From NCBI GenBank assembly GCA_963787835.1, contig CAWBEI010000002.1, positions 128,001-192,000 of the forward strand: DNA of 64,000 bases, written 5' to 3'. The translations under genes were made by a program, and so were the position numbers. The notes under the pieces are model-generated. The model was not told the DNA's origin, made no database searches, and saw nothing but the letters and a program-made list of their open reading frames with translations. Below, one piece after another: positions 17,237 to 36,218 of this stretch. The first letter of the stretch is position 1, and each line of letters begins with the position of its first letter. The DNA comes from Ignavibacteriota bacterium (lineage in GTDB: Bacteria; Bacteroidota; Ignavibacteria; Palsa-1295).

Positions 17237-19330
17237 TCATGCAGGAATATAAATATCGAATCGAGCCCCTTTATGAAGTTCGCTGGTTGCGGTAATAATG
17301 CCATTATGATTCTCCACGATCTTTTTTACGATGGCGAGACCTATGCCTGTGCCGGCATATTCTTCTTTATCGTGAAGTTTTTGGAATACTTCAAAAATGC
17401 GATCGTTGAATTTGGGTTCAAAGCCGATGCCGTTATCGCTAACGGTGATGTGGCAATATTTTTTGTCGGGGGAAAGCTTTTCGTTGTTCAGATGACTACC
17501 CGTTTCGATGGTACTTGTGATAATGATATGCGGCGACACCTGAGGAACCGAAAACTTGAGTGCGTTGCCGATCAGATTTAGCATTAATTGCCGGAACTGA
17601 AACCGAATGACGTTGACCGGGCAAAGATCGATGGCCTCGATGACCGCGTGTTTCTCCTCGATGCTTTCCCTCAATTCTGTCTTTACTTCTTCGATAATGA
17701 TATTCAGATCCGTATTGACGAATATTCTTTCCGCCGTATTGACACGAGAAAATGCAAGAAGATCCTCGATCAGGGTTTGCATCCGTTTCGCGGATTCCTG
17801 TATTCGGCGGAAAAACTCTTTGCCTTTCTCGGATAGGTTCGCATTTTCATTTTCGCTGATCCGGCTTACAAAAGTTTGAATTTTGCGGAGTGGCTCCTGT
17901 AGATCGTGGCTCGATACATAAGTGAATGCGAGAAGCTCTTTATTGGCAATGCTTAATTCCTCGGCTCGTTTTTCCTTTTCGTCATTTTGAAAGGCGAGTT
18001 CTTTGTTGGCAATGATGAGCTCGGCGGCCCTCTTTTCTTTTTCATCGTTTTGGAACGCAAGTTCCTCGTTAGCGATGATCAGTTCAGCCGCGCGTTTTTC
18101 CTTTTCTGCGGCTCGCTTCTCTTTTTCATTGCTTTGAAAAGCAAGCTCCTCGTTGGCAATGATAAGCTCTGCGGCCCGCTTCTCTTTCTCATCGTTTTGA
18201 TAGGCCAGCTCGATGTTCGCAATATTTAGCTCTGCGGCGCGCTTTTCTTTCTCATGGTTTTGAAAGGCAAGTTCGATATTCGCGATATTTAGCTCTGCTG
18301 CACGTTTTTCTTTTACTTGATTTTGGACAGCGAGCTCTTTGTTGGCAACGACCAATTCTTCAGCCCGCTTTTCCTTCTGATCGTTTTGAAAAGCGAGTTC
18401 TTTGTTCGCTATACTTAGTTCCGCAGCTCGCTTTTCTTTCTCTTTATTCTGAAATGCGAGTTCCTTGTTGGCGATCCTCAGCTCCTCGGCGCGTTTCTCC
18501 TTTTCCTCATTTTGGAACGCAAGTTCCTTGTTGGCGACACCTAACTCCGCTGCACGTTTTTCCTTTTCATCGTTTTGATAGGCAAGCTCGATGTTTGCAA
18601 TGTTCAGCTCTGCAGCGCGCTTTTCTTTTTCTTTATTTTGGAAGGCAAGTTCATCGTTGGCAACAACAAGTTCAGCGGCGCGTTTTTCCTTCACCTGATT
18701 TTGATAGGCCAGCTCTTTGTTGGCAATGACCAATTCTTCGGCGCGTTTTTCTTTCTGATCGTTCTGAAATGCAAGCTCTTTATTCGCAATGCTTAACTCG
18801 GCTGCTCGCTTTTCTTTTTCTTTATTTTGAAATGCAAGTTCTTTGTTGGCGATGCCTAACTCGGCAGCGCGTTTCTCTTTTTCTCCATCTTGGTAAGCGA
18901 GTTCTTTATTAGCGATACCTAACTCTGCCGCTCGTTTTTCTTTCTCATCGTTTTGGAATGCAAGCTCCTTGTTAGCGATATTTAGTTCTGCCGCTCGTTT
19001 TGCCTTCTCTTTATTTTGAAACGCAAGTTCCTTGTTCGCGATGATAAGCTCTGCCGCGCGTTTTTCCTTCTCGTCGTTTTGGAAGGCGAGTTCTTTATTG
19101 GCAATGATCAACTTATCCGATTTCTTACTCTTTGACCCATTTTTTTTGCTCGTGGCGACAATTGCAGCATCAGCCACTGCTTCGGCAACCGCCGCTTTGG
19201 CGACATCTGCTTTAGCTACCGCATCTTTGGCAACTATTGCTGTTGCGATCGCTGCTTTGGCTACCGCTGCCGTGGCTGCGGCCGCTGTGGGAAGTCGGTA
19301 CGCGAATTTCGTTAATTTTGCTGTTTTCAT
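17237..19330 (-). CDS. cytoplasmic histidine kinase with 18 tandem 21-aa coiled-coil repeats and no sensor domain
   Basis: H-box SHDLQEPLRK, N-box NLIGNALKF, DNGIGF, GTGIGLAIVKKI; no TM helix. Confidence 0.92.
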   Translation of the reverse strand: MKTAKLTKFAYRLPTAAAATAAVAKAAIATAIVAKDAVAKADVAKAAVAEAVADAAIVATSKKNGSKSKKSDKLIIANKELAFQNDEKEKRAAELIIANKELAFQNKEKAKRAAELNIANKELAFQNDEKEKRAAELGIANKELAYQDGEKEKRAAELGIANKELAFQNKEKEKRAAELSIANKELAFQNDQKEKRAEELVIANKELAYQNQVKEKRAAELVVANDELAFQNKEKEKRAAELNIANIELAYQNDEKEKRAAELGVANKELAFQNEEKEKRAEELRIANKELAFQNKEKEKRAAELSIANKELAFQNDQKEKRAEELVVANKELAVQNQVKEKRAAELNIANIELAFQNHEKEKRAAELNIANIELAYQNDEKEKRAAELIIANEELAFQSNEKEKRAAEKEKRAAELIIANEELAFQNDEKEKRAAELIIANKELAFQNDEKEKRAEELSIANKELLAFTYVSSHDLQEPLRKIQTFVSRISENENANLSEKGKEFFRRIQESAKRMQTLIEDLLAFSRVNTAERIFVNTDLNIIIEEVKTELRESIEEKHAVIEAIDLCPVNVIRFQFRQLMLNLIGNALKFSVPQVSPHIIITSTIETGSHLNNEKLSPDKKYCHITVSDNGIGFEPKFNDRIFEVFQKLHDKEEYAGTGIGLAIVKKIVENHNGIITATSELHKGARFDIYIPA
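17960..19114 (-). repeat. 63-bp coding tandem repeat, 18 copies plus one 21-bp (7-aa) insert
   Basis: Unit ELxIANKELAFQNxEKEKRAA; extra EKEKRAA after unit 16. Confidence 0.95.
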
Positions 19331-19800
19331 AATGGTATATTCTCCAGATCGCCTTTGATAACAAAGTTTTCTGTTGCCGGCTGGGTCAAATTATCTTCCG
19401 TCGCAAGCAGGAGAGCTTGGTAAATTACTTTCTTAAGTTGCGAAAATTCAGCGGGCTTGCGGATGTAATAATTCGCCCCTTTTTTGTACAGCAAGTTCAC
19501 CACGTCTTGTTCGAACGACGTCGAGAAAATGATCACAGGAAGATGTTTCAATTTTTCATCAAGCTTTAATTCCGCTAAGACCTCGAACCCGTTTTTGCGA
19601 GGCATGTTGAGATCGAGGAAAAGCACATGTGGAGGCGGAGGCTCGAGTTTGTCTTCTTCAAGCAATCGCATGAGCTGCTCGCCATCATGCACGGTGGTAA
19701 GTTTTGCCGTGATCGGCAGTTCGTCTAATGCATCTTTGAAAAAGAGGCAATCGTCTTTGTCATCATCGGCCAGAAGTAGGATCACTGGATTCGGCATCAT
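19327..19800 (-). CDS. single-domain response regulator (Rcp1/CheY-like)
   Basis: ADDD, FLDLNMP and KP motifs; ATGA overlap with the kinase start. Confidence 0.93.
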   Translation of the reverse strand: MMPNPVILLLADDDKDDCLFFKDALDELPITAKLTTVHDGEQLMRLLEEDKLEPPPPHVLFLDLNMPRKNGFEVLAELKLDEKLKHLPVIIFSTSFEQDVVNLLYKKGANYYIRKPAEFSQLKKVIYQALLLATEDNLTQPATENFVIKGDLENIPL

Positions 19801-19841: not shown

Positions 19842-21125
19842 TCAGCTTTTGTTATAGGGATCAAGTAATTGTGCGAGTGCCGGATTCCTCCGAATTTCCG
19901 GTTGTTCGTTGAGCCATGCCTGGGGGATGGGCGCTAACCCATCGGCGACATCTTTTTCTAATTTACTTCCCGAGGAATTCCTTACATACCGTGCAAACAA
20001 TGTTTTATATTTGTCTTTGACTTCATCTTCCTGTCGGATACGAATCTGCTCTTCGTCTCGGAGTAGTTGCTGCTTCTCTCGTGCTTCGTTTCGTTCTTCC
20101 TGAATGCGTAATCGGTTATCAAGTGCAGCCCATCGCTTTTCTTCTTTTTCCTCTTTGATATGCCGAGCTTCCAGATCGTCAGAGACCAATCCCTTTCGCA
20201 TCACTTCCCCTTCTTCTTTCGTCTCTTTTACCTGTTGTGCAACAAGAATTCTTTCTTCGGATGCTGATTCCACCGTTTCCTTCTGAAGCCGGAGTGACTC
20301 ATTCAACAATTCCCACCGTTCGTCTTCTTTTCTATCTTTCACTTCGCGGGCTTTCAGATCGTCTAAGGCTAATCCGATGCGAAGCACTTCACGTTCATCC
20401 TTAACATCCTTAAATTGTTGAGCGATGAATTGTCGTTCTTCGGAAGCTATTGCCCCCGTTTCCTTCTGAAGCCTGAGCGATTCATTTAGTGAGTCCCATC
20501 GCTTATCTTCTTTTAGATCTTTCACATGTCGAGCTTCCAGATCGTCAGAAACTAATCCTTTTCGAATCACTTCACCTTCCTCTTTGATCTCTTTTACTTG
20601 CTGAGCAACGAGAAGCCGTTCTTCGGTTGCTAATTCCACCGTTTCGTTCTGAAGTCGGAGCGATTCATTCAATAGCTCCCATCGCTTATCTTCTTCTTTC
20701 GCTTTAATTCCTCGCGCCTTCAGGTCCCCAGACGCCACTTCTTGAAGCCTTACGACTTCCTGCTGTTCCTTTTGTTCTTTTGCTTTCTGAGCTTTTAGAT
20801 TGCCGAAGGCAAGGTCTTTTTGATGCGCTGCTTCAATTTCTTCACGCCTTCGTATCCGTGGAGCACGAGCGAGCGTGATGAGGTAGAGCGCGACCGTCGG
20901 TGCCACGACCACAATTGCGGCAGTGACCAGCCCTCGCATGAGGATAGAATCGATCCCGGTGTTATTGAGAAGGTAATTATAGATGAAGAGCGATGACGTT
21001 AGAGTTATACCGATACCTTTCACTAAAAAGGCGGTAGGGAAAAACTTATGGGCGATCGTGAACAAGCTGTGGCGTTTGCCCGGTGTGAGCGTCGGAAGTG
21101 GCCGTTCCTGCCATTTAAGTGACAT
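19842..21125 (-). CDS. membrane-anchored coiled-coil protein with 61-aa repeats
   Basis: Two N-terminal hydrophobic segments, then 3.5 repeats of DLxAR...RW..LNESLRLQ. Confidence 0.7.
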   Translation of the reverse strand: MSLKWQERPLPTLTPGKRHSLFTIAHKFFPTAFLVKGIGITLTSSLFIYNYLLNNTGIDSILMRGLVTAAIVVVAPTVALYLITLARAPRIRRREEIEAAHQKDLAFGNLKAQKAKEQKEQQEVVRLQEVASGDLKARGIKAKEEDKRWELLNESLRLQNETVELATEERLLVAQQVKEIKEEGEVIRKGLVSDDLEARHVKDLKEDKRWDSLNESLRLQKETGAIASEERQFIAQQFKDVKDEREVLRIGLALDDLKAREVKDRKEDERWELLNESLRLQKETVESASEERILVAQQVKETKEEGEVMRKGLVSDDLEARHIKEEKEEKRWAALDNRLRIQEERNEAREKQQLLRDEEQIRIRQEDEVKDKYKTLFARYVRNSSGSKLEKDVADGLAPIPQAWLNEQPEIRRNPALAQLLDPYNKS

Positions 21126-21182: not shown

Positions 21183-22406
21183 TTATTTTGTAATCTTATT
21201 GGATAGGCCCATTTGTTTATCCCGTTCCCCCAAGCCCGTAATCCATGCAATAATTGTTTGCAGGCTGAGTTCTACATTGCCCACCTGGCAATGATTTTGC
21301 GCCTGTTCTTTTTCGGTGAATAACCGCGCTGTCAGCGAGCGCGCATTTTTAAGTATTTCTATCTGGCCGTAAAACTGTTGCATGGGAACGTAATGGTCTT
21401 TGCTCCCTGCGAAAAGTAAAACATCCTGTTTTACCAGGCGCGAGACGCTGCGGGTTTCAAATGCACCGGTCTTCGTAAAAAATTCGTAGGGGCTTTTTGC
21501 GCCCAAGGTTTGCATTCCCTGTTTAACACCCCACTCAATTGCCAGGCTTTTTTTCATCTTTTGCTGAATAATGGCATTAAGTATAGGAGATGCACCCAAC
21601 TTCATTAAGGTTGAGACAATGGTTTGTGCAGAAGGCTCCATTGTTCTATAAGGGAACTCCCGGAAATCCAAAACTATATCATCACACACTACCCTGCTTA
21701 TTCTTGATTCAAAAGCGGCAGCTCGGATTGCAAGACACCCCCCAAGCGAATACCGCAACAGTGTAACATCTTCCAGATTGAAGTAATCTATAACAGCTTT
21801 GCATGGCTTATGCCATTCATGCGTCATGGGCAAATGGCCTTCTTCCAGTGTTGCTCCCTGCCCCGGACCTTCAAACGTAATTATATCAAAACCATGTTCA
21901 AAAAAATATAGCTGATGCCCAAACAACTCCTCAATATAACTGTCGAAACCTCCGAAGAAAATAATAGTTCCGATGGGCGATTCCGGCGTGAACCGGTATG
22001 CACTCATGGTGATTTTCTCATACGGGATGTTGAAATGCTGCGTATCCTGTATTTGGTAATACTCCTTCATCCACTGTATGTAACGAAGGCGGCTTGCATC
22101 TTTCCTGCCGTCGTCGGGAAACATAAAAAATTCGGCTGAACGCAGATAACATGCAGCATGTAGCAGGCGGTTTTGCACGTATGCTTTTTCGGAAAGAGCC
22201 AAAAATTCACGGGTATAATCGGCATAGTTGTGGATAAGTGGGGTTACTTCCCTCATCTCATCAAGCATCTGTTCCGAACCGTCAGAGAACCGGTTCATTT
22301 GATAATTGAGACTAATATCGGGGTGGATGGTATAATACCCAATATTAAATCCTTCTTTAACTCTAACTACGGTCGTTTTTTTAGGATCTAAAGTTTCCGT
22401 TTTCAT
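21183..22406 (-). CDS. alpha/beta hydrolase (FrsA / dihydroxypseudooxynicotine-hydrolase-like)
   Basis: GGFDSYIEE, FEGPGQG, (R)YSLGG, DHYVP and HCQVGN motifs. Confidence 0.82.
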   Translation of the reverse strand: MKTETLDPKKTTVVRVKEGFNIGYYTIHPDISLNYQMNRFSDGSEQMLDEMREVTPLIHNYADYTREFLALSEKAYVQNRLLHAACYLRSAEFFMFPDDGRKDASRLRYIQWMKEYYQIQDTQHFNIPYEKITMSAYRFTPESPIGTIIFFGGFDSYIEELFGHQLYFFEHGFDIITFEGPGQGATLEEGHLPMTHEWHKPCKAVIDYFNLEDVTLLRYSLGGCLAIRAAAFESRISRVVCDDIVLDFREFPYRTMEPSAQTIVSTLMKLGASPILNAIIQQKMKKSLAIEWGVKQGMQTLGAKSPYEFFTKTGAFETRSVSRLVKQDVLLFAGSKDHYVPMQQFYGQIEILKNARSLTARLFTEKEQAQNHCQVGNVELSLQTIIAWITGLGERDKQMGLSNKITK

Positions 22407-22428
22407 TTTATTTTGTTTTACCTGTGTG

Positions 22429-23097
22429 TTAATAACATACTTCTACCCTGGCCTTAAAAGTTTTTTCGTCGTTCAAATGAGTTACCATGTAATCGGCAAG
22501 GTCGGCGCGCGAAATACTAGATGGGTTGCGTAAATGTTCATTGATGGCTATTCTATATTTTCCGGTTCGCTTATTATTAGTGAGCCGTGGAGCACGAATA
22601 ACGGTCCAATCCAAATCAGATTTGCTAAGCACTTTTTCCATCCGTAACATGTCAGCATAAATATATTTGAATAACCGTTGTAAAATATATTTTACGACAA
22701 ACTTCATTATGAAAGAACTTTTTGGGGGAATGATTACCGCGCCAGCCGTTATACAAACGATACGCTTAATCCCTGCTTTTTCCATGACCGTAACGATGTT
22801 ACTTACTCCTTGTGAATAAACGGTGGTGGGCTTTTTTCTAGGGCTTCCTAAACACGAAATAATAGCATCTTTCCCTTTCACTGCATCTTCAAAAGTAGCT
22901 GGCTGAAGTACATCTCCTTTAATAATTTCCAGATCCTTATTAGTGAGGGGAAAAGCATCGGGATTCCGAACAATAACGGTAACCCGATAACCTGCTTCGA
23001 GTGCTTGCCGTGCAATAAGTTTGCCTGTTCCGCCCGTGGACCCGAATACCATTATGGTTTTCATCGTTGTTTTGTTTAGCGCCGATGTTTCAGTCAT
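22429..23097 (-). CDS. NAD(P)H-binding flavin-reductase-like atypical SDR
   Basis: GSTGGTG, WTVIRAP and ISRADLA motifs. Confidence 0.87.
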   Translation of the reverse strand: MTETSALNKTTMKTIMVFGSTGGTGKLIARQALEAGYRVTVIVRNPDAFPLTNKDLEIIKGDVLQPATFEDAVKGKDAIISCLGSPRKKPTTVYSQGVSNIVTVMEKAGIKRIVCITAGAVIIPPKSSFIMKFVVKYILQRLFKYIYADMLRMEKVLSKSDLDWTVIRAPRLTNNKRTGKYRIAINEHLRNPSSISRADLADYMVTHLNDEKTFKARVEVCY

Positions 23098-23139
23098 CCT
23101 TTTGTGTTAAATTTTAATCTTCACCGCTTGAAGAAAGGA

Positions 23140-23580
23140 TTAGGAATATAGATGGTGAGCTGTACCAGCTTCCGTAAGGGTCAATAAATCAAAGTATTCT
23201 CTAACTTCAACTAACTTACCTTCGTGAACTTCACACATTAGCATAATTGGCAGTTCGAATTTTGTGCCCGGAGCAGGCCTCTGGGATGAAGTCGATGGCC
23301 ACTTATCGGTAACGATTCCCGTATGCACATATTCCCAGCAGAGCTTTGTTCCTTCGGCATTGGTGAAAACGTTTGTTGGCTTAATGCCCAGACCGTCACC
23401 GTGTTTCCTTGCCGCTACTGAACGGTTTGCGAGTTCCAGCATTTTATCAATTCCGATGAATGTTTCTCCGGTTGCCATTATTTTCCACTTGCCATCCGAG
23501 GCAAGAAGTTTTTTCCATCCTTCAATGTCATCGGAAGTAAATGCGGCAGTAAAAGCTTTTGCTAATTCGTCAGTGTTCAT
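23140..23580 (-). CDS. SnoaL/NTF2-like protein
   Basis: 146 aa with GKLVEVREYFD motif. Confidence 0.8.
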   Translation of the reverse strand: MNTDELAKAFTAAFTSDDIEGWKKLLASDGKWKIMATGETFIGIDKMLELANRSVAARKHGDGLGIKPTNVFTNAEGTKLCWEYVHTGIVTDKWPSTSSQRPAPGTKFELPIMLMCEVHEGKLVEVREYFDLLTLTEAGTAHHLYS

Positions 23581-23996: not shown

Positions 23997-24110
23997 TGTA
24001 TATTTTTATTGTTTAAAGAGAGCATACAATATTGTGTGCCCTAAAAGTTGTAGTTGAATTGTGGCTAGAACCGTATCCCGCTGCAATATCGAGTGATCCC
24101 ATACGTTTTA

Positions 24111-24179
24111 TCAGATGTGGCAGCTACCCACGACGAACAACGTGGCTAAAACGACTAAAACGATTACAACGATATACAT
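24111..24179 (-). CDS. 22-aa hydrophobic micro-protein MYIVVIVLVVLATLFVVGSCHI
   Basis: Hand-translated and absent from the ORF track. Paralog of 24303-24374 with the same upstream GGTAACTATT. Confidence 0.65.
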   Translation of the reverse strand: MYIVVIVLVVLATLFVVGSCHI

Positions 24180-24302
24180 AATAGTTACCCTTCTTAAATT
24201 AATGTTATTGTGATATTATTGGTATTTCATTTATGGATAAAAACCGAATTCCCGCTGCAATATCGAATCTTCATCGTCTTGCACCGATATGATCCATAAC
24301 CT

Positions 24303-24374
24303 TTAACAGGCGTGGCAGCTACCGACGACGAACAACGTGGCCAAAACGACTATAACGATCCAGAGTATATTCAT
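24303..24374 (-). CDS. 23-aa hydrophobic micro-protein MNILWIVIVVLATLFVVGSCHAC
   Basis: Hand-translated; differences from the paralog in the shared core are synonymous. Confidence 0.65.
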   Translation of the reverse strand: MNILWIVIVVLATLFVVGSCHAC

Positions 24375-24422
24375 AATAGTTACCTTTCTTCGCGTAATGC
24401 TTATATGATTCCGGTATTTTAT

Positions 24423-26445: not shown

Positions 26446-26514
26446 CAAAGTTACGGAAAGGGGCGTTGGAATGTGTTACAAAATTTTAGAAATAAGTTAC
26501 ATAATTCACACATT
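26446..26514 (-). promoter_or_regulatory. 69-bp operator/promoter module P1
   Basis: AATGTGTGAATTATGTAACTTATTTCTAAAATTTTGTAAC-N21-TAACTTTG. Confidence 0.85.
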
Positions 26515-26528
26515 CCGGTCGTTAGTTC

Positions 26529-26560
26529 GGCGCATGGGTTTCTCCTATCCCCATACGCCG
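26529..26560 (-). terminator. hairpin downstream of 26588-26791
   Basis: cggcgcatggg...cccatacgccg imperfect stem. Confidence 0.4.
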
Positions 26561-26587
26561 AGGAATAACGATCGTTGGGTGTTATCC

Positions 26588-26791
26588 TTATCGGATATGA
26601 ACCCCCAAGACGACTTTAGCGTGGTGACGACGGCGACGGCGGCGATGATGACGATAATGAGGTGCAACCCTGACGCCTACGCCTACTCGGACTTGGCTTG
26701 CACTTGCGCTCGTAGTCCCAGAAGCGGTGAACTGCACCATTCCGAAGGCTAAAGCACAGAAAACGATCAGCCTGATTGTTAGATGTTTCAT
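26588..26791 (-). CDS. small secreted Arg/His-rich peptide
   Basis: Signal-peptide-like N-terminus, then QVRVGVGVRV...HHRRRRRRHH; directly downstream of P2. Confidence 0.65.
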   Translation of the reverse strand: MKHLTIRLIVFCALAFGMVQFTASGTTSASASQVRVGVGVRVAPHYRHHRRRRRRHHAKVVLGVHIR

Positions 26792-26876
26792 TGTGTAGTT
26801 ATGATTTAGATATATAAAGATAATATTTGTATGTGGAAGAATGTTTTCAATGAATTCCTCTCATATTTCTCTGGTA

Positions 26877-26945
26877 CAAACTTACGGATTGAAGACATAA
26901 AATGTGTTACAAAATTTTAGAAATAAGTTACATAATTCACACATT
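26877..26945 (-). promoter_or_regulatory. 69-bp operator/promoter module P2
   Basis: AATGTGTGAATTATGTAACTTATTTCTAAAATTTTGTAAC-N21-TAAGTTTG. Confidence 0.85.
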
Positions 26946-27010
26946 GAAGACCCCGCCGGTAAGGTGGGACCCCATGCCCCACCTCTTGTGAAATACAATA
27001 CAATAAGTTA

Positions 27011-27730
27011 CTATCGTTTTCCGCCGCCCTTGGGCGCTCCGCCGCCTCTCGAAGCACCACCACCTTTAGGGGCTGCGGCAGGCTTCACGTATCCTCTCCC
27101 ATAATTTAAATTCTTGCTCGCAGCCGGCATGGAAGGAGTGATGGACTTCATTGGCACTTCATGTGCTACACGATGATATGTCGCAGGCGCATGATCGTTC
27201 TGGACCGGCCGCTGCATGAACGTCACGCGGTTACTATTCTCATTGAATGCTCGAGGAACGAGCCGGTGACCTGGCGCAGTGTTCGTGACGATCCGGTTGC
27301 GAACGACAATGTCCGTGTAATTATCGTACCCATGCGATGGATAATTTCTGCGATAATACCCCTCGTTCATCCACGGGCGAGAAATATTGCGGTCGATGAG
27401 CACCATAAACGCACCGCCCAGGTCAATACCTGCATATTGAGGTGGCAAGCCCTCGCTGTAGATCCACTCGCCGTTGGGGCCAGCGTACCAGAACTGACCA
27501 TCCCACACGTCATAATACATATCGTAATCGGGAAGGTAATAATAACGCACGGAACTGGTATTGTCGTACGGTGGCGCCCATGATGGCGGTACATAGTTCT
27601 GAACATCGATGGAGGCGCCGATGCGGATCTGAGCCTCGCTTGAGTTTGTATAGAATGCGAGTGCGAATGTGAGCGCCAGAAAAACGGACGTTCTTCGTAA
27701 CCGTAGGGATAGAATAGAATGTATTTTCAT
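27011..27730 (-). CDS. secreted Tyr/Pro-rich hypothetical protein
   Basis: Signal peptide SEA-Q, PPSWAP and YYYLPDYDMYYD motifs, Gly-rich tail. Confidence 0.72.
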   Translation of the reverse strand: MKIHSILSLRLRRTSVFLALTFALAFYTNSSEAQIRIGASIDVQNYVPPSWAPPYDNTSSVRYYYLPDYDMYYDVWDGQFWYAGPNGEWIYSEGLPPQYAGIDLGGAFMVLIDRNISRPWMNEGYYRRNYPSHGYDNYTDIVVRNRIVTNTAPGHRLVPRAFNENSNRVTFMQRPVQNDHAPATYHRVAHEVPMKSITPSMPAASKNLNYGRGYVKPAAAPKGGGASRGGGAPKGGGKR

Positions 27731-27801
27731 AAGTATTATGTATTGTAACTGTTATAATAGCGTTGGGGATATGATTTTTGATTGATTAACGACGTGTTCT
27801 G

Positions 27802-28044
27802 TCAGAAGAATAACTCTGGAATGTTGTCGTCATAATGCTTATCTACAAAGATTTGTCGTTGGGATTCAGATAGTGCAGCATCATCGGATGATGTCGCTGC
27901 ACTCTTTTCAAATTCTGAATCTGTCGGAGGGTTCAAATTACTTGGAAGGTTTCCAAGAATCTCGGATCTGGAATTCCGATGCTGGACCTCGTGATAACCA
28001 AGAAGCTGCATGAGACTGCGATTTCTTGAAGTACTATTTTTCAT
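27802..28044 (-). CDS. hypothetical protein
   Basis: 80-aa ORF in tight operon spacing. Confidence 0.5.
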   Translation of the reverse strand: MKNSTSRNRSLMQLLGYHEVQHRNSRSEILGNLPSNLNPPTDSEFEKSAATSSDDAALSESQRQIFVDKHYDDNIPELFF

Positions 28045-28060
28045 AATTTTCTATATATTA

Positions 28061-28363
28061 TTAATCAATAGAGAAATCGGTCGCCGAACTGATCCTGGAT
28101 TTTATCTCACTTTTCAGCGATTCAAGCTTTTCCGTGAAGGCATCGCTCAGTTGCCCGATACGATCTTCGATTGTTTCGGCTACATCATCAATAACGCCTT
28201 CCCCTTTGCGGCGAATAACTCTCCGCAACACGCTCCCCTTATAGGGAGAATAAAGCATTCCCGCCGCAGCACCGATGGCCGCACCGGCTAAAAGACCGAG
28301 CAGGAGATTTCCACCGCTGTTCATGGAGTTCGAGTTGTGTCCGCAATGTTTGCATTGTTCCAT
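28061..28363 (-). CDS. YtxH-domain protein
   Basis: LLGLLAGAAIGAAAGMLYSPYKGS.LR motif; N-terminal CKHC. Confidence 0.85.
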   Translation of the reverse strand: MEQCKHCGHNSNSMNSGGNLLLGLLAGAAIGAAAGMLYSPYKGSVLRRVIRRKGEGVIDDVAETIEDRIGQLSDAFTEKLESLKSEIKSRISSATDFSID

Positions 28364-28518
28364 TAGAGCACCCTCCTTCCGCTGATAACTCTCATAATAA
28401 TCGCAATGATCGCGATGACCAGGAGGATGTGGATCAGCGCACCTGCGCCATACACGAGGAACCCGAGTGCCCAGGCAATAATTAGGATTACTGCAACCAA
28501 GTATAATAAACTTCCCAT
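28363..28518 (-). CDS. lmo0937-family (DUF5670) small membrane protein, 51 aa
   Basis: Hand-translated MGSLLYLVAVILIIAWALGFLVYGAGALIHILLVIAIIAIIMRVISGRRVL; TAATG overlap with ytxH; absent from the ORF track. Confidence 0.88.
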   Translation of the reverse strand: MGSLLYLVAVILIIAWALGFLVYGAGALIHILLVIAIIAIIMRVISGRRVL

Positions 28519-28561
28519 AATGATTGTTTTAAATAAGTGAATAAAAATGTATTGAAATGGC

Positions 28562-28975
28562 TCATTCGTAGCCGCTTTTGATGACCGTGAGGATCATTTT
28601 GAACCGCTCGTTGGCTCGAAAAATATTGGATTTGTGCGCAGGCAGAACGATACCCTCGCCCGTTTCAAGTAAATTCGATACGCCATCAATGACGATCTCG
28701 GCCTTGCCATCGATGATCTGAGCGAAGCTATCGAACGGTGAGGTTTTTTCCGTCAGGCCTTCACCCGTATCCAGCGACATGACGCTGATATTGCCCGTAG
28801 ATTTCTTGATAATTGTTTTGCTAAGTACTGCATTCGGCACATACTCGATAATTTCCACTATAATTACTCCTTTCGATTTTTCTAATTCATACGAATTTTT
28901 ACTAATGGCCAGGTCTATCATGGGACTACTGACAACTTTTTTGCTTTCTAATTTTATGGGTTCGCTTTTTTTCAT
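28562..28975 (-). CDS. cupin-domain protein
   Basis: SKTIIKKSTGNIS, EKTSPFD, IIDGKAEI and RFKMILTVIKSGYE motifs. Confidence 0.85.
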   Translation of the reverse strand: MKKSEPIKLESKKVVSSPMIDLAISKNSYELEKSKGVIIVEIIEYVPNAVLSKTIIKKSTGNISVMSLDTGEGLTEKTSPFDSFAQIIDGKAEIVIDGVSNLLETGEGIVLPAHKSNIFRANERFKMILTVIKSGYE

Positions 28976-28993
28976 TTTAATAGGAGCAATGCA

Positions 28994-29596
28994 TTATTTA
29001 ACGAAGAGCAAATTGTAATTCAAAACCAGCACATCGCCAACCTTCATCGTGCCCAAAAGGAAAGATGGTCGCTGGATATTATAATCTGAGAGATAGAGCG
29101 GCAGCGAGCCGGTGCATAAGATCGTGCCATCCTTATTGATGCACGCCGACGTTTTTAGTGTAGTAGGCTGGGTCACACCAGCCATCGTAAGATTACCATG
29201 AAGTAAGATCAGATAATGCTCGCTTCCACTTTTTATGAACATAGCAGAAGTCAGTTCAAAAACGATGTCCTTGAATTTATCCTCTTTTAGAGCTTTATAA
29301 GCACTCTTTTCCATTCCACGGTCTTCACTCATGAGATTGTGTACCGGCAAATTCAAGGAAAATTCCGAAACCGCACGTAGCTCATTATTCTCGCCGAAGC
29401 TAAATTTCGCAGAACCCGTGAACGCATGAGCAGTCATGCCCCAGTTATGCAACGGAGCAGTTCCTTTGATATTGATGACCGAATTGCTATCGACCGTGTA
29501 ATTCGTTTGAGCATTTGTTGCATGAGGAAATGCAAAGCAAATCGTAAAACCGATGAGGAGGATAACTTTAAGTCTTACGATAGTGTCCGTTTTCAT
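28994..29596 (-). CDS. YceI-family lipid/polyisoprenoid-binding protein
   Basis: Signal peptide, GTAPLHNW and GNLTMAGVT motifs. Confidence 0.85.
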   Translation of the reverse strand: MKTDTIVRLKVILLIGFTICFAFPHATNAQTNYTVDSNSVINIKGTAPLHNWGMTAHAFTGSAKFSFGENNELRAVSEFSLNLPVHNLMSEDRGMEKSAYKALKEDKFKDIVFELTSAMFIKSGSEHYLILLHGNLTMAGVTQPTTLKTSACINKDGTILCTGSLPLYLSDYNIQRPSFLLGTMKVGDVLVLNYNLLFVK

Positions 29597-29603
29597 TAGA
29601 TGG

Positions 29604-29672
29604 CAAAAATACGGAGATCATCATCTGAAAGTGTTACAAAATTTTAGAAAAAAGTTACATAATTCACACATT
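29604..29672 (-). promoter_or_regulatory. 69-bp operator/promoter module P3
   Basis: AATGTGTGAATTATGTAACTTTTTTCTAAAATTTTGTAAC-N21-TATTTTTG. Confidence 0.85.
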
Positions 29673-29685
29673 TTTCAAATTACGA

Positions 29686-30459
29686 TCACTTTGGTGACGG
29701 TTCAGGATTCTTCCCATAAATAATGACCTCTGTTTCGACAGGAGTTGTGCGAAACAACTCGTCAGCAGCAAACATCGGAAGCCGGATGCAACCGTGGCTC
29801 CCTGGTATCGAAGGGACGCTGGGTTCGCCGTGTACGGCAAAACCGCCCGTAATGTACATTGGGTCGAACATAATCCCCAGTGGACTTTTTTTCCAGCCCG
29901 TCACTTTGTGATAGATCTTAAATTTCCCGCGCGGCGTCCTGGCATATTCATTACCTTTTCCGGGATAATGGAATCGCTGTCCCGTGCCGGTCGAAACCGG
30001 CAGAACATGTACGACTCGATCGGTCGAATCCACAACGAGCAGGACTTGATCGTCGAGATCGACTTCAAGATGATACGCATGGATAGAATCGTTTGGAACC
30101 GGAATAGATGAGCACATTATTTCCGCGATCGTCGAATCCGTAAGTGTCCCCGTTCGCGATAGGCCGGAAAGCTTCTGAAATGCTACAATTGCCTGACGGT
30201 TTGCATCTTCCTTAGGCGAATAGGTCTTGCCGGCCCAGAAGTGAAGTTCGTAAAGCTGTGCGATAGCATAATCAATCCTCTCGTTTTGCAGAATGTTCGC
30301 AAATTGTCTTGCTACTGTTGACGATGCTGAATCAGCATGCGATGACTGTTGAGCAATCGCAGGATAGCTGCAAAGTACAAAAGAGAGTAAAAGAACATAC
30401 CGCGTAGTTCTCAGCATTAATTCGTGGATATACTGGAAGGAGATTGATGGCAGCATCAT
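29686..30459 (-). CDS. L,D-transpeptidase (YkuD) with peptidoglycan-binding domain
   Basis: AFQKLSGL..TG, VSTG, TPRG, AVHG and SHGCIR motifs. Confidence 0.9.
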   Translation of the reverse strand: MMLPSISFQYIHELMLRTTRYVLLLSFVLCSYPAIAQQSSHADSASSTVARQFANILQNERIDYAIAQLYELHFWAGKTYSPKEDANRQAIVAFQKLSGLSRTGTLTDSTIAEIMCSSIPVPNDSIHAYHLEVDLDDQVLLVVDSTDRVVHVLPVSTGTGQRFHYPGKGNEYARTPRGKFKIYHKVTGWKKSPLGIMFDPMYITGGFAVHGEPSVPSIPGSHGCIRLPMFAADELFRTTPVETEVIIYGKNPEPSPK

Positions 30460-30483
30460 GGATGATGTGCATCATGGTTGATG

Positions 30484-30708
30484 CTATGGCGCGACATTTT
30501 CTGGGACAGGCTGGCGCCGCTGACCACGCGGGCCTACCGACAGATCTTCACTCGCGATATAGATCACCATGGCAGTAACCATAAGGACTAAGAATACCCA
30601 AAAGCGCCAATCATGGTGAATGCGTCTCCATCGAGGCCGATGTGCTTCGATGGTGCTGTCGGTGCTTGGCCTTCCGGACTCGTTGTGATGATGTTTCGAA
30701 TTTTTCAT
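30484..30708 (-). CDS. small single-TM protein
   Basis: HHDWRFW followed by a hydrophobic helix. Confidence 0.6.
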   Translation of the reverse strand: MKNSKHHHNESGRPSTDSTIEAHRPRWRRIHHDWRFWVFLVLMVTAMVIYIASEDLSVGPRGQRRQPVPENVAP

Positions 30709-30727
30709 TGATTGATCCGATGGAGTT

Positions 30728-31327
30728 TTATTGAACGAAAATCAAACTATATGTCAAGGTAAGAGCATCGCCAACCTTCATCGTGCCAAGCATAAATGAT
30801 GGGCGCTCGATACCATAATTCGAAAGTAATATCGGCACCGTACCGCTGCATGAAATAGAGCCATTCGAATTTACCGTCGCTAATACGATCAATGTGACCG
30901 GTTTCGTGACACCCGCAATCATAAGATTACCCAGCGCAGTTATTTTATACTTGCTTCCACCCGATGAAGTGACCGTAGCGGATGTGAGCCTGAATGTAAT
31001 GTTTGGGTTCCTATCTGCTTTGAGCGATTCATAAGCGTTGGAGTTCATTCCGTCGCTTTCGCTCTTGAGGTTATGGACCGGCAAACTGAGAGAAAGCGCG
31101 CTTATCGAGCTCAGTTGCTTGCTCGATGAAAGGCTCATCGTTGCATTGGCCGTGAACGAATTAGCTGTCATGGTCCAATTGTGCAGGGTCGAGGTCCCTG
31201 CGAGCGTCATTGCCGAATTGGAACCTATTTTATAGCTTGTTTGCGCATTCGATACGTTTGAATATACAATGCAAAGTATAAGAATAACGAGAAGGATCAC
31301 CGCCTGTATTAAATTTCGGTCTTTCAT
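30728..31327 (-). CDS. YceI-family protein (paralog of 28994-29596)
   Basis: GTSTLHNW and GNLMIAGVT motifs; shared RPSF.LGTMKVGD tail. Confidence 0.87.
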   Translation of the reverse strand: MKDRNLIQAVILLVILILCIVYSNVSNAQTSYKIGSNSAMTLAGTSTLHNWTMTANSFTANATMSLSSSKQLSSISALSLSLPVHNLKSESDGMNSNAYESLKADRNPNITFRLTSATVTSSGGSKYKITALGNLMIAGVTKPVTLIVLATVNSNGSISCSGTVPILLSNYGIERPSFMLGTMKVGDALTLTYSLIFVQ

Positions 31328-31384
31328 AATTTATTATTAGTTGTAATATTGAAGTGGAGTTTTAATACCTATTGAAATACTATT

Positions 31385-32152
31385 TTAACGTGCGGCATAT
31401 CCGCCATCGATCACTAACTCCGAACCGGTCACGAACTTCGATTCGTCGGAGGCGAGGTAGAGGATCCCGAAGGCAATATCGTCCGGTTCGCCCAAATGAC
31501 CGAGCGGATGCAATGCCACCAATGCCGCGCGGACTTCTTCCGCTTTGCCGTCTGTCTTAGCGAAATTCTCCACCATTGGCGTCCAAATAAATCCCGGATG
31601 CACCGAATTTACCCGAATTTTTTTCTTGGCGTAGGTCAGAGCATCGTTCTTGGTCATGATCATAACAGCTCCTTTTGATGCATGATACGGCGGGACATCT
31701 GCGGCACCCACGAGACCGTAGATCGAGGAAAGATTGATAATGCTGCCACTACCCACCTTCAGCATATATGGGATGGTATGCTTTGTGCAAAAGAACACGC
31801 CTTTGACGTTCACATTCATAACCTTATCCCATTCTTGCTCCGTAAGCTCGTGGGTTGGTTTGTCCACACCGATAATTCCCGCGTTATTCACGAGTACATC
31901 TATTCGTCCCCACTTTGCAGCAATTTCCCCAATTACTTTGGCAACTTGGCTTTCATTCGTGACATCCAAATGCCAAAAGGCCGCTTCACCACCAGCATTA
32001 TGTATGGCATCGACGGTGCCATTTTCTTGGCTAACCGAGACATCGGTAACAGCGACTATTGCGCCTTCCTGTGCCAAAAGAATGGCCGTTGCACGGCCAA
32101 TGCCCAACGCTCCACCGGTTACGATCGCTACTTTATTCTTTACTCTGTTCAT
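31385..32152 (-). CDS. classical SDR oxidoreductase
   Basis: TGGALGIG, NNAG, YHASK and HPG motifs; start at ATG 32152. Confidence 0.92.
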   Translation of the reverse strand: MNRVKNKVAIVTGGALGIGRATAILLAQEGAIVAVTDVSVSQENGTVDAIHNAGGEAAFWHLDVTNESQVAKVIGEIAAKWGRIDVLVNNAGIIGVDKPTHELTEQEWDKVMNVNVKGVFFCTKHTIPYMLKVGSGSIINLSSIYGLVGAADVPPYHASKGAVMIMTKNDALTYAKKKIRVNSVHPGFIWTPMVENFAKTDGKAEEVRAALVALHPLGHLGEPDDIAFGILYLASDESKFVTGSELVIDGGYAAR

Positions 32153-32189
32153 TATATTATTTATAAAAAGTACTTCTATGACTACGCAG

Positions 32190-32258
32190 CAAAAATACGG
32201 TGGCAACCTTCAAAAAACGTTGCAAAATTTTGGAAAAGAGTTACATAATTCACACATT
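32190..32258 (-). promoter_or_regulatory. 69-bp operator/promoter module P4
   Basis: AATGTGTGAATTATGTAACTCTTTTCCAAAATTTTGCAAC-N21-TATTTTTG. Confidence 0.82.
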
Positions 32259-32301
32259 CTCATCTAAAGCCTTGAAATGGGTATGATGCCTTCCTTTTCA
32301 T

Positions 32302-32514
32302 CTACCAATTTGTCCGCCGCCGAACAGATTTTCGGACTTCCTCCTCACCCTGCTCTGAAAAAGTTCTTCGCAGAGCAAATCTCGTCTTCATCTGATGTTC
32401 AAGTAATGAGTGGATATCCTCATTCGAGATCGGATTCTCGTCCTTTTCGTGAGCGGTATTACCATCCTGTGCCGGCGGTTGGTTTTCTTCAGTTTTTGAT
32501 GGTTCGTTGTTCAT
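32302..32514 (-). CDS. small hydrophilic hypothetical protein
   Basis: 70-aa ORF; the only candidate gene between P5 and P4. Confidence 0.5.
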   Translation of the reverse strand: MNNEPSKTEENQPPAQDGNTAHEKDENPISNEDIHSLLEHQMKTRFALRRTFSEQGEEEVRKSVRRRTNW

Positions 32515-32633
32515 TGCGTTCAGGTTGATTGAAGAACACGCGTTATCGTATGTTCAAAAAGATTGAAGATTGCGCTCGCGTGGGTTATTGAAGCAATGTT
32601 AAACCCGTTGAAACAATCACGATTACTACAAAA

Positions 32634-32702
32634 CAAAATTACGGCAATGGCCTTCAAAAGAGGTTACAAAATTTTAGAAAAAAGTTACAAAATTCACACA
32701 TT
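32634..32702 (-). promoter_or_regulatory. 69-bp operator/promoter module P5
   Basis: AATGTGTGAATTTTGTAACTTTTTTCTAAAATTTTGTAAC-N21-TAATTTTG. Confidence 0.85.
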
Positions 32703-32805
32703 TGCTTTTCTGACAGCACTGGCTGTAACGAAGTGGAAATCCTTACTGTTGGAACCATCCTAATCATTAGATAAAAAAATTCTTAATACCTAATCCCAAT
32801 CTTTT

Positions 32806-33903
32806 ATGCTGACGGAAATAGCGGTAGCGGATCCAGTGGCAGACCTCATCGTGTTGCAACCGCAGCAGCGACATTATCTCATTCCTATTGCTATTGCGAG
32901 CGTGGTGGTCATCGGAGTGCTGCTTCATTTTGTCAGCAATATCTTTTTGTCCATTATTACCGCGCTGTTCCTGGCAAATATCTTTATGCCGCTCGTCAGC
33001 GGGCTTCGCACACGGAAGGTGCCGATGATAATCTCAATTTTATTGGTGCTGGCGCTGGTTGGCGGCTTGTTCTTTGGAATTGCAAAAATTATCGGCGTGA
33101 CGGTTGAATCCATCATTCTCGTGATGCCGAAATACGAAGCAAAGTGGGAAAATGTATTATTGCCCCAAATCGCGGGGATCCTTGGGAACATCTCCGATGG
33201 CATGAGGAAGCAAGCGATGGATTTTAATCTGACATCCCTTGTACCATCTAACGAGATGGGTTCAGCGCTTTCTTCCGCCACGAATCTTGTGAGCGGCTTT
33301 GCTATTATTCTTCTAGCGATGCTTTTTATTTTAGCAGCGAATGGCCAGTTTAAGAAAAAGATCGGAATAGCATTTCCGAAATCAGGTTCGTTACAACTCA
33401 CGCAGATCATACAAAACATTGAACGAAGCGTTCGGCGCTATTTAGTTACAACACTGATCCTGAACACTTTAGCCGCAGTCACAATGACCGTTGTTCTGCT
33501 TCTTTTTGGTGTCGATCTTGCGTTCCTGTGGGGCATCCTGACTTTTTTACTGATGTTCATACCCACCTTTGGCGGATTATTTGCTATTGTACTGCCCGTC
33601 TTAGCAGCATTCCTGCAATTCGACACCGTAAGCACTCCGATTCTTCTTGCCATCACGGTGATCGTGACTCAACTTATGATCGGCAGCGTTCTTACTCCGC
33701 GCGTAATGGGTTCGACGCTCAATATTAGTCCCTTGCTTATTATTGTATCGATCATTTTCTGGGGATGGGTATGGGGACTGCTTGGGATGATCCTTGCCGT
33801 GCCGATCACCTCGACCATCGCCATCGTCTTTCAAAACATTCCCGCTCTTACGCCAATCGCGGTGCTGATGAGCACCGATCCGGGAAAAGTCCGTTGGTAT
33901 TAA
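32806..33903 (+). CDS. AI-2E family transporter
   Basis: Multi-TM protein with FIPTFG, PRVMGSTLNISP and WG..GMILAVP motifs. Confidence 0.9.
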   Translation: MLTEIAVADPVADLIVLQPQQRHYLIPIAIASVVVIGVLLHFVSNIFLSIITALFLANIFMPLVSGLRTRKVPMIISILLVLALVGGLFFGIAKIIGVTVESIILVMPKYEAKWENVLLPQIAGILGNISDGMRKQAMDFNLTSLVPSNEMGSALSSATNLVSGFAIILLAMLFILAANGQFKKKIGIAFPKSGSLQLTQIIQNIERSVRRYLVTTLILNTLAAVTMTVVLLLFGVDLAFLWGILTFLLMFIPTFGGLFAIVLPVLAAFLQFDTVSTPILLAITVIVTQLMIGSVLTPRVMGSTLNISPLLIIVSIIFWGWVWGLLGMILAVPITSTIAIVFQNIPALTPIAVLMSTDPGKVRWY

Positions 33904-35549: not shown

Positions 35550-35597
35550 TTTTGTAACGGTAGGATTATTCAGCGAGTGGCTAATTTACCACCAGTA

Positions 35598-35666
35598 CAA
35601 AGATATGAAATTCAACCGAAAGACACGTTACAAAATTTTAGGAAAAAGTTACAAAATTCACACATT
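35598..35666 (-). promoter_or_regulatory. 69-bp operator/promoter module P6 (overlaps the araC stop codon)
   Basis: AATGTGTGAATTTTGTAACTTTTTCCTAAAATTTTGTAAC-N21-TATCTTTG. Confidence 0.85.
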
Positions 35667-36218
35667 CTCAAGTCCACCCATCCTTTTATGCTTGATATTC
35701 TTAAAAAAGGTAGGAGTGAGTCCGGTGATCTTCTTAAATTGATTCGAAAGCGCTGCTACGCTGCTATAATGAAGCCTGTACGATATTTCTGTGAGCGAAA
35801 GCTCGTCGTAAATAAGCAACTCCTTTGCTCGTTCGATCTTATGCTTGATAATGAATTGCTCGATCGTCGTGCCCTCGACTTCTGAAAACATATTGGCAAG
35901 ATAGGTATAGTCGTACTTTAACTTTTCGGTTAGGTGATCGGACCAATTTATTCTCAGTGCTTCGTCGGAATAATGGATGGTTTCGATGATAACCTGCTTG
36001 ATCTTTTCGATCAAAATAGCTTTCTTATCATCCATCAGCTCCAGCCCGGACCGTTTTAAGACACGGGTCAATTCGATGCGTTGCGCCGGAGATATAGGTC
36101 CTGGAATCTCCACTTCTCCAAGATCGACGGTGGTATAAGGAAGGCCGAGGGTTTCTAACTCGGCGATCACCACCATCTTGCACCGGATGCTCACCATGTA
36201 CTTAACGTACAGCTTCAT
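35658..36218 (-). CDS. AraC-family transcriptional regulator with short HMA-like N-domain
   Basis: YDYTYLANMFSEVEG, LSLTEIS..L.YSSVAALSNQFKKITGLTPT motifs. Confidence 0.93.
   Translation of the reverse strand: MKLYVKYMVSIRCKMVVIAELETLGLPYTTVDLGEVEIPGPISPAQRIELTRVLKRSGLELMDDKKAILIEKIKQVIIETIHYSDEALRINWSDHLTEKLKYDYTYLANMFSEVEGTTIEQFIIKHKIERAKELLIYDELSLTEISYRLHYSSVAALSNQFKKITGLTPTFFKNIKHKRMGGLENV

Follow-up and report, generated by a model that had tools for sequence, protein, structure and literature searches.

An Ignavibacteriota histidine kinase with an 18-unit, 21-residue repeat rod in the signalling-helix position

The window analysed here, a stretch of 64,000 nucleotides from an Ignavibacteriota bacterium (GenBank assembly GCA_963787835.1, contig CAWBEI010000002.1, positions 128,001 to 192,000), encodes a putative histidine kinase in which a rod of 18 three-heptad units runs in phase into the dimerisation and histidine phosphotransfer (DHp) domain, with no recognisable sensor ahead of it. 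By sequence, kinase and receiver are ordinary, and the apparent novelty is a repeat unit in the slot of the signalling helix (S-helix), in which invariant Gln and Lys replace two hydrophobic core residues. The array is likely an amplified S-helix derivative, and homologous rods appear repeatedly as the sole front of unrelated output domains. We tentatively favour the reading that the rod itself serves the kinase as input, in the form of a polar zipper of marginal stability that would respond to physical stress, while counting it slightly likelier to be wrong than right. Its dimeric state, its stability and the nature of the signal are all inferred.

Domain organisation of the kinase and integrity of the array

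The kinase gene is an open reading frame, and its ATG overlaps with the stop codon of the receiver gene ahead of it (Table 1). Pfam assigned HisKA (PF00512, 46.9 bits, cut-off 26.9) and HATPase_c (PF02518, 72.6 bits, cut-off 26.4), both above the cut-offs, as in class I histidine kinases. The phospho-acceptor His475 is unchanged in 60 of 60 aligned homologs, as are N589, D632-G636, F646/F649 and G660-G664, which we take to be the N, G1, F and G2 boxes, across the same alignment. By sequence the kinase domains are intact, and autophosphorylation and transfer to the receiver are predicted. An earlier note, made from the letters of this DNA alone, had seen no PAS or GAF domain, and besides the two kinase domains Pfam indeed returned only PH_SLA1 (PF24081), which we judged spurious because no stretch passes alone and the region is predicted to be helical. 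Neither HAMP (PF00672) nor a PAS-GAF-PHY photosensory module was found in the Pfam scan of the kinase. The PF24081 label also sits on most repeat proteins (P0002-P0121) and ESM Atlas clusters and looks like a systematic false positive.

The closest PDB sequence to the kinase core is the kinase domain of RpBphP2 (8f71, E 5e-37), the sole match at 1e-25, and the top Foldseek match to the kinase is a bacteriophytochrome, the Foldseek matches shown being kinase structures. The core appears to be of bacteriophytochrome type, and like bacteriophytochromes it is paired with an Rcp1/RcpA-like single-domain receiver, but the rod takes the place of the PAS-GAF-PHY module. The Ala-rich N-terminus has just one window of borderline hydrophobicity (Kyte-Doolittle 1.77), and that window contains a Lys. 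This N-terminus is not a conserved sensor, since its copy number varies and it is missing from three of six in-genus orthologs.

Eighteen full units are followed by a partial nineteenth (residues 458-466) that leads into the H-box at His475, which bears out the earlier description of a sensor-less kinase with a 21-residue-periodic rod. The sole irregularity in spacing, as also noted before, is a 7-residue insert that adds one heptad and keeps the register; it is found in five of the seven copies in the genus and in the nearest relative outside it (G020), and is lacking in two genus members (G003 and G005). The AlphaFold2 monomer model, built on the 60-sequence alignment (mean predicted local distance difference score 71, predicted template modelling score 0.37), is helical from residue 78 to 494 with two low-confidence breaks. 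A helix rises 0.1485 nm per residue, which gives a length of about 57 nm for the predicted continuous helix. Glu accounts for 75 of the 385 residues of the rod.

Units separated by six positions share an identity of 0.865 (p=0.004 when each of 10,000 shuffles is scored by its best lag from 1 to 9). The recurrence of units 5-7 as units 11-13 reported earlier is therefore real, and its true extent is the duplication of a six-unit block, units 4-9 matching units 10-15. As DNA, the units are 62-87% identical. Codon pairs for the same residue agree in 43.9% of cases, compared with 41.0 ± 0.8% when shuffled 1,000 times, and at 23 nt the longest exact repeat is at chance level (shuffled mean 22.6). 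The array appears old, saturated and not collapsed. On these figures selection for codon diversification was rejected: of the earlier inference from diversified synonymous codons the strong selection on the protein stands, while the synonymous sites are merely near saturation.

Tandem arrays are often misassembled, and N gaps occur in the related arrays L011 and L039, which could suggest that assembly error or selfish DNA accounts for the array or for its number of units. The probability of this is negligible: the units are too divergent for it, with no exact repeat above 23 nt, five independently assembled genomes agree in 18 units and in their order, a further one having 19, and conservation lies at the protein rather than the DNA level. 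The ortholog arrays and the protein-level conservation refute it, including as the condition under which the earlier note would have withdrawn its claim. Four soil-metagenome DNA runs from one study contain part of the stretch, and no RNA runs were listed. Short contigs (X1) tile positions 17972-18899 at mostly 99%+ identity; none spans the array and, as they may come from the same source as the window, they were not counted as support. The masked or gapped stretches within arrays of other assemblies lie at L011:1516-3102 and L039:3333-4000, so unit counts in short-read metagenome-assembled genomes can be floors.

Conservation of the rod within the genus

Of 14 further genomes in the genus, six carry the array, five with 18 units and one with 19, and unit-specific variants hold the same order across these copies. 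At the same locus, G020 encodes a PAS domain and 16 units. In one ortholog (G006) the ATPase part is frameshifted, possibly through sequencing error. A rod whose length can be tuned, as proposed earlier, finds no support, at least for fast tuning, because six of the seven genus copies have 18 units with the position-specific variants in place. The nearest relative of the kinase core (P0006, of 101 aligned, support 0.97) has the array minus one six-unit block, which it more likely lost, because the outgroup P0007 (G020-type) has both. Rod length thus appears to change slowly and in blocks.

Identity in the rod (units 4-15) exceeds that in the kinase core in seven of seven ortholog pairs, with rod/core values of 99/90, 98/90, 96/92, 96/86, 94/86, 89/82 and 91/79%, the comparison with G006 covering only 60 core residues. 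The ratio of nonsynonymous to synonymous substitution rates is 0.027 for the rod versus 0.060 for the core in the single pair with unsaturated synonymous sites. These values indicate that the rod is under stronger selection than the catalytic core, with conservation at the level of the protein and not of the DNA.

Register of the unit and its relation to the signalling helix

The helix register was taken from the original S-helix description (Anantharaman, Balaji and Aravind 2006, PMC1592074), which places ERT at c-d-e and Glu at g. It was applied to 1,470 family units picked at ≥12 of 21 consensus matches, a threshold that inflates all conservation values and cannot produce a positional pattern. 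Over the three heptads, one helix face is nearly invariant, with E,E,E at g, L,L,K at a, A,Q,R at d and N,N,A at e. Conservation at g/a/d/e is 79-99% per unit, and the per-protein consensus over 150 cluster representatives is 93-100% identical at these positions, compared with 51-87% at b/f. Spacings of up to 70 residues fall in heptad multiples in 1,298 of 1,303 cases (and in 1,578 of 1,586 in a second count), in line with the earlier expectation of insertions and deletions in multiples of seven.

Several of these features are shared with the S-helix as described in PMC1592074: both stand before DHp, GGDEF, cyclase or PP2C-type domains or between PAS domains, both are more conserved at g/a/d/e than at b/c/f, and both carry Arg at d followed by Glu at g. 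The rod differs in that K78%-R96%-A95% replaces ERT at c-d-e, Arg alone being kept, and in that Gln and Lys occupy two hydrophobic core positions. Whereas the S-helix is one element of about 40 residues, or some five heptads, with a hydrophobic a/d zipper, the rod extends over 55 heptads with L,A,L,Q,K,R at a/d, and the three-heptad unit is repeated up to about 25 times, often without a sensor upstream. Large hydrophobes are thus found at only two of six a/d positions, and the zipper would be weak, held by Glu-Asn, Glu-Lys and Glu-Arg contacts.

The final full unit begins 38 residues before the phospho-acceptor His in 103 of 118 homologs. We compared it with 25 kin kinases that lack the unit before His, a small set in which many members have rods further upstream; these mostly show a canonical S-helix at this place. 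The last unit equals this helix at R-20, L-16, A-13, N-12, K-11, E-10 and L-9 relative to His, and nine of 21 residues are common to both, all within the last 12. The unit can be read as the last three heptads of an S-helix in which core Leu and Val became Gln and Lys, and Thr became Ala. Without ERT, with a polar core and repeated, the rod falls outside the S-helix family, yet it appears to work in the S-helix slot.

Distribution and domain architectures of the repeat family

A three-unit profile matched 1,869 of 1.84 billion cluster representatives (50% identity) at E≤0.001, 613 of them at 1e-30. The repeat profile returned no PDB sequence at E≤10, and in the ESM Atlas the rod belongs to no named cluster, only to unnamed, mostly Bacteroidota ones. 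A scan of GTDB genomes confirmed at least 593 of 611 candidates; the 80 loci among the matches listed, which underlie all locus counts below, are mostly Bacteroidota. Single listed records at 84-94% identity came from Anaerolineaceae, Clostridiales, Georgfuchsia, Lentisphaeria, Saccharibacteria, Cloacimonadales and Elusimicrobia. Its distribution is patchy: the repeat occurs in 12 of 300 further genomes from the phylum to which the window belongs, in 83 of 251 Flavobacterium genomes (the genus of L046), in two of 249 further genomes from the class that includes L032 (one genome unscored) and in none of 250 other genomes in the family of L043. The sole plasmid match among 72,556 is a rod-only kinase of Clostridium estertheticum. 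In the source genome (G000) a regular expression identified one repeat-bearing protein, and the phylum scan likewise matched this locus only. No description of the repeat was found in open-access full text (figures and supplements lying outside its scope), and one may exist.

Pfam annotation of 146 of the best 150 representatives gave HATPase_c in 111, HisKA in 102, PAS_9 in 65, REC in 32 and CHASE3 in 12, followed by GGDEF (7), HD (7), SpoIIE (2), cyclase (1) and EAL (1). HAMP occurs in one of 79 representatives (set A4), and a methyl-accepting chemotaxis domain (MCP) follows the rod in L086. In 77 of 141 representatives that start with Met, at most 100 residues precede the first unit. The 120 closest homologs come from a ranking that favours long arrays; of the 118 in which the His was located, 55 are rod-only kinases, mostly of 9-13 units, and 32 of 120 contain a domain-sized insertion between units. 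Rod-only fronts also stand on GGDEF (P0361 from Glaciimonas sp. PCH181, which appears cut at its C-terminus; P0381; and P0244 from Planococcus), HD-GYP (P0429, L043) and SpoIIE domains (P0189), the GGDEF and HD-GYP proteins being scattered sporadically in other phyla.

In a tree of 101 kinase cores, which left out 20 of 121 sequences for a different junction, no Met start or a short core, extra domains were gained or lost at least 15 times while the rod was retained. Rod-only (52) and rod-plus-extra (49) states alternate 15 times versus 34 with shuffled labels; the two states appear clustered, yet with many switches. What the earlier note missed is that the repeat seems to be a widespread S-helix-derived family, often placed behind or between PAS domains. 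Its claim that the rod is itself the input fits the recurrence of rod-only fronts on several output enzymes, and has to be qualified by these linker positions. Short Flavobacterium proteins (P0393, P0354, L074:3842-4615 and L079:3779-4726) consist of a rod and a DHp-like stub without ATPase domain; those in L074 and L079 adjoin Big_5/ice-binding genes, and some of these short proteins are annotated 'diguanylate cyclase' without a GGDEF match.

Many kinases lack a recognisable sensor, and at least 1,869 protein clusters place a nearly invariant, Pfam-less repeat there. The rod might be a passive spacer or clamp, which dimerises, fixes the phase of the DHp and sets basal activity, with control exerted through transcription of the adjoining island, the DHp or PAS, and with rod-only forms as PAS-loss derivatives. 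The strict heptad-multiple spacing is what a phase-keeping linker requires, the family copy number ranges from about 3 to 25, the rod often lies between sensor and output as S-helices do (PMC1592074), and the sister lineage G020 has PAS ahead of the same array. We consider a mere spacer rather unlikely, as it leaves unexplained the conservation above the catalytic core, the invariant charged and polar core residues, the repeated rod-only fusion to unrelated enzymes and the retention of 18 units with nothing upstream to space. If the rod were a linker only, the family would offer a clean natural series on coiled-coil length and phase versus kinase output.

The rod as a putative input

The case for the rod as the input is its conservation above that of the enzyme, together with the presence of the same repeat on several unrelated signalling enzymes. 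We suggest that two rods pair in parallel as a long coiled coil, its core largely polar, and that its zipping or register would shift cooperatively with temperature or with cytoplasmic salt or water activity. Zipping would set the packing of the DHp and hence phosphorylation of the co-encoded receiver. The kinase would presumably act in the adjoining stress island, its role there and the direction of the signal being conjectural.

Sensing by helical elements has precedents in TlpA (coiled coil; bioRxiv 694448), EnvZ (helix; PMC8534201) and fungal poly-HAMP proteins (helical array; PMC13446029). TlpA is described (bioRxiv 10.1101/694448) as a long homodimeric coiled coil that is the sole sensing element and undergoes a cooperative transition, and provides a works-like model for the rod as input. 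It differs in its N-terminal DNA-binding output, and the comparison is by analogy. Poly-HAMP kinases (M. xanthus AskA, fungal group III; Coles et al. 2026, PMC13446029) are likewise soluble with a repeated helical module array at the front, which in fungi contributes to osmosensing, but the rod kinase has no HAMP and is predicted to form one continuous helix per chain and not concatenated four-helix bundles.

Several observations weigh against the rod as sensor. Extra sequence is present in 63 of the 118 close homologs, PAS_9 is frequent among the representatives and G020 has PAS before the array at the same locus. Because about half of the family has the rod behind or between PAS, REC or CHASE3 domains, it can serve as a linker. 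In addition, conservation extends to position c, where the residues are hydrophobic (I 89%, F 91%). This feature has no role in a simple two-stranded sensor that works by melting, and leaves room for a wider interface or a partner.

More broadly, the unit could be a portable physical-sensor module, a polar S-helix-derived coiled coil that reads cooling or freeze-concentration directly. In at least three phyla it would have been fused repeatedly to kinases, diguanylate cyclases, c-di-GMP phosphodiesterases and phosphatases, and in Bacteroidota it would feed a cold/general-stress island. We regard this wider proposal as possible but doubtful. Genes matching PF11999 (ice-binding-like) lie within 4 kb in nine of 80 listed loci. 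Of the 83 Flavobacterium genomes with the repeat, 48 have PF11999, compared with 17 of the 168 without it (odds ratio 12). The named cultured hosts, a list without background control, include Rufibacter glacialis, Flavobacterium glaciei, F. rhamnosiphilum, F. degerlachei, Hymenobacter roseosalivarius, Glaciimonas sp. PCH181 and Clostridium estertheticum. Apart from the last two, these are probably of cold origin, in part judging by their names. Published abstracts call C. estertheticum psychrophilic (PMC13438422, PMC8996182), and Antarctica is the origin of a close Glaciimonas strain (PMC10618363). The association with PF11999 is confounded, both genes often lying on one island a few kb apart in kin that are not independent. 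CheR is tied to the repeat to a similar degree (67 of 83 repeat-positive versus 48 of 168 repeat-negative Flavobacterium genomes), likewise in part through linkage, so that p-values overstate both associations. PF11999 had no match in the source genome (97.9% completeness), nor in the control genomes. The cold link of the repeat is suggestive only.

The frequency of CheR raises the possibility that the rod is a methyl-accepting coiled coil, in which CheR/CheB-type enzymes modify Glu or Gln for graded input, as in RsbK/RsbM and MAC1. These share with the rod kinase a Glu-rich helix upstream of the DHp and the frequent presence of CheR in the same genomes, and RsbM methylates the S-helix of RsbK (PMC4574943). 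CheR lies within 4 kb of nine of 80 listed loci and has one match in the source genome. This explanation is very unlikely. Unlike those systems, the unit is without a methylation consensus and no CheR/CheB is fused or adjacent to the kinase; the chemoreceptor consensus has no site in the rod or in any of 1,470 units, and its relaxed form occurs in 14 of 1,470. Furthermore, the invariant Glu is at g, flanking the core, a CheR match is missing in 16 of 83 repeat-positive Flavobacterium genomes, and in the source genome CheR (C2:1864167) and kinase (C2:145-147 kb) are about 1.7 Mb apart. The CheR-linked L062 and L095 have a separate Gln/Glu-rich helix after the rod.

Should the rod be a sensor, it would represent a new, modular means of monitoring a physical property of the cytoplasm, and would give the engineering of switches a compact part of scalable length. 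Natural rod-only diguanylate cyclases allow a direct test of the sensor idea through c-di-GMP read-out.

Genomic context and potential partners

The receiver, whose best matches include RcpA, Rcp1 and RcpB, is likely the cognate partner of the kinase, as judged by sequence and position. It is preceded by a gene for a protein of 427 amino acids with 61-residue helical repeats (183-bp period), for which Pfam and the ESM Atlas gave no usable match. Its 79 homologs, where named, belong to Candidatus Kapabacteria/Bacteroidota, and these names suggest Candidatus Kapabacteria for the lineage of the window; the gene was found in 14 of 24 family genomes and in none of 16 outside the family. The order upstream repeat gene, receiver, kinase is kept in seven of seven relatives. 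An OmpA gene lies upstream in six of the seven, and a YtxH/cupin/YceI island also in five (the G020 contig ends first). The AraC family of this island flanks 28 of 80 listed repeat loci.

This context bears on the idea that the rod is a docking or bundling surface, through which a partner, such as single-domain receivers or the membrane-anchored repeat protein encoded upstream, or neighbouring rods switch the kinase. Positions b and c, which fall outside a two-stranded core, hold hydrophobic residues (I/V, I, F; c 89-91% conserved), unit-specific surface residues hold their position across orthologs, one to five tandem single-domain receivers often precede rod-only kinases of the subfamily, the 61-residue-repeat gene stands before the kinase in all seven relatives, and an interaction of REC with the S-helix is reported for RsbK (PMC4574943). 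We nevertheless consider docking unlikely, since no partner is universal: among the 80 listed loci, stand-alone receivers of this type occur at 25, AraC at 28 and the upstream repeat gene at none. Receiver and unit counts are unlinked (Spearman 0.08, p=0.47, same loci), and rod-only GGDEF and HD-GYP proteins are scattered in other phyla. The upstream gene also occurs without the kinase and was rejected as a general rod partner. As the source genome has a single repeat-bearing protein, a network of same-repeat proteins does not exist there. Recurring sets of three to five tandem paralogous single-domain receivers, in recurring order, were observed ahead of rod-only kinases of the subfamily (Table 1).

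Table 1. Features of the kinase locus in the window, with tandem-receiver loci of other assemblies
Feature	Position	Strand	Basis or remark
Histidine kinase gene (rod, DHp and ATPase; 697 aa)	17237..19330	-	Open reading frame, Pfam, AlphaFold2 model
HATPase_c, residues 578-696	17243..17599	-	Pfam; N, G1, F, G2 boxes present
HisKA (DHp), residues 469-531	17738..17926	-	Pfam; phospho-acceptor His475, codon 17906-17908
Partial 19th unit, residues 458-466, S-helix position just before DHp	17933..17959	-	
Rod, 18 x 21-residue (three-heptad) units, residues 73-457	17960..19114	-	
7-residue insert (one extra heptad) after unit 16	18086..18106	-	
Units 10-15, second copy of six-unit block	18170..18547	-	
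Units 4-9, first copy of six-unit block	18548..18925	-	
N-terminal 72 residues, Ala-rich 5-residue units	19115..19330	-	
Single-domain receiver, Rcp1/RcpA-like, stop overlaps kinase start	19327..19800	-	Adjacent in 7/7 relatives
Upstream gene, family-less, hydrophobic N-terminal segment and 61-residue repeats	19842..21125	-	
Small AraC-type regulator of adjoining island	35658..36218	-	
Tandem-receiver loci	L051:840-3155, L055:1895-3695, L030:1389-3384, L067:1941-3459, L087:762-2259		

A 33-bp intergenic motif is present in six copies around the AraC island (window 26475-35659) and also in relatives. With a pattern built from these six copies, no further genome copies were found at ≤4 mismatches, and there is no copy directly before the kinase operon. 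Genes for SnoaL, NAD-binding and alpha/beta-hydrolase proteins (window 21183-23580, minus strand) lie between island and kinase operon in the source genome; this insertion is likely recent, because all three are absent there in five relatives and G006 has a SnoaL match alone. In addition, an intergenic sequence of 116 nt occurs twice at window 24099-24409; the copies share 78% identity, lie 195 bp apart and contain short internal repeats.

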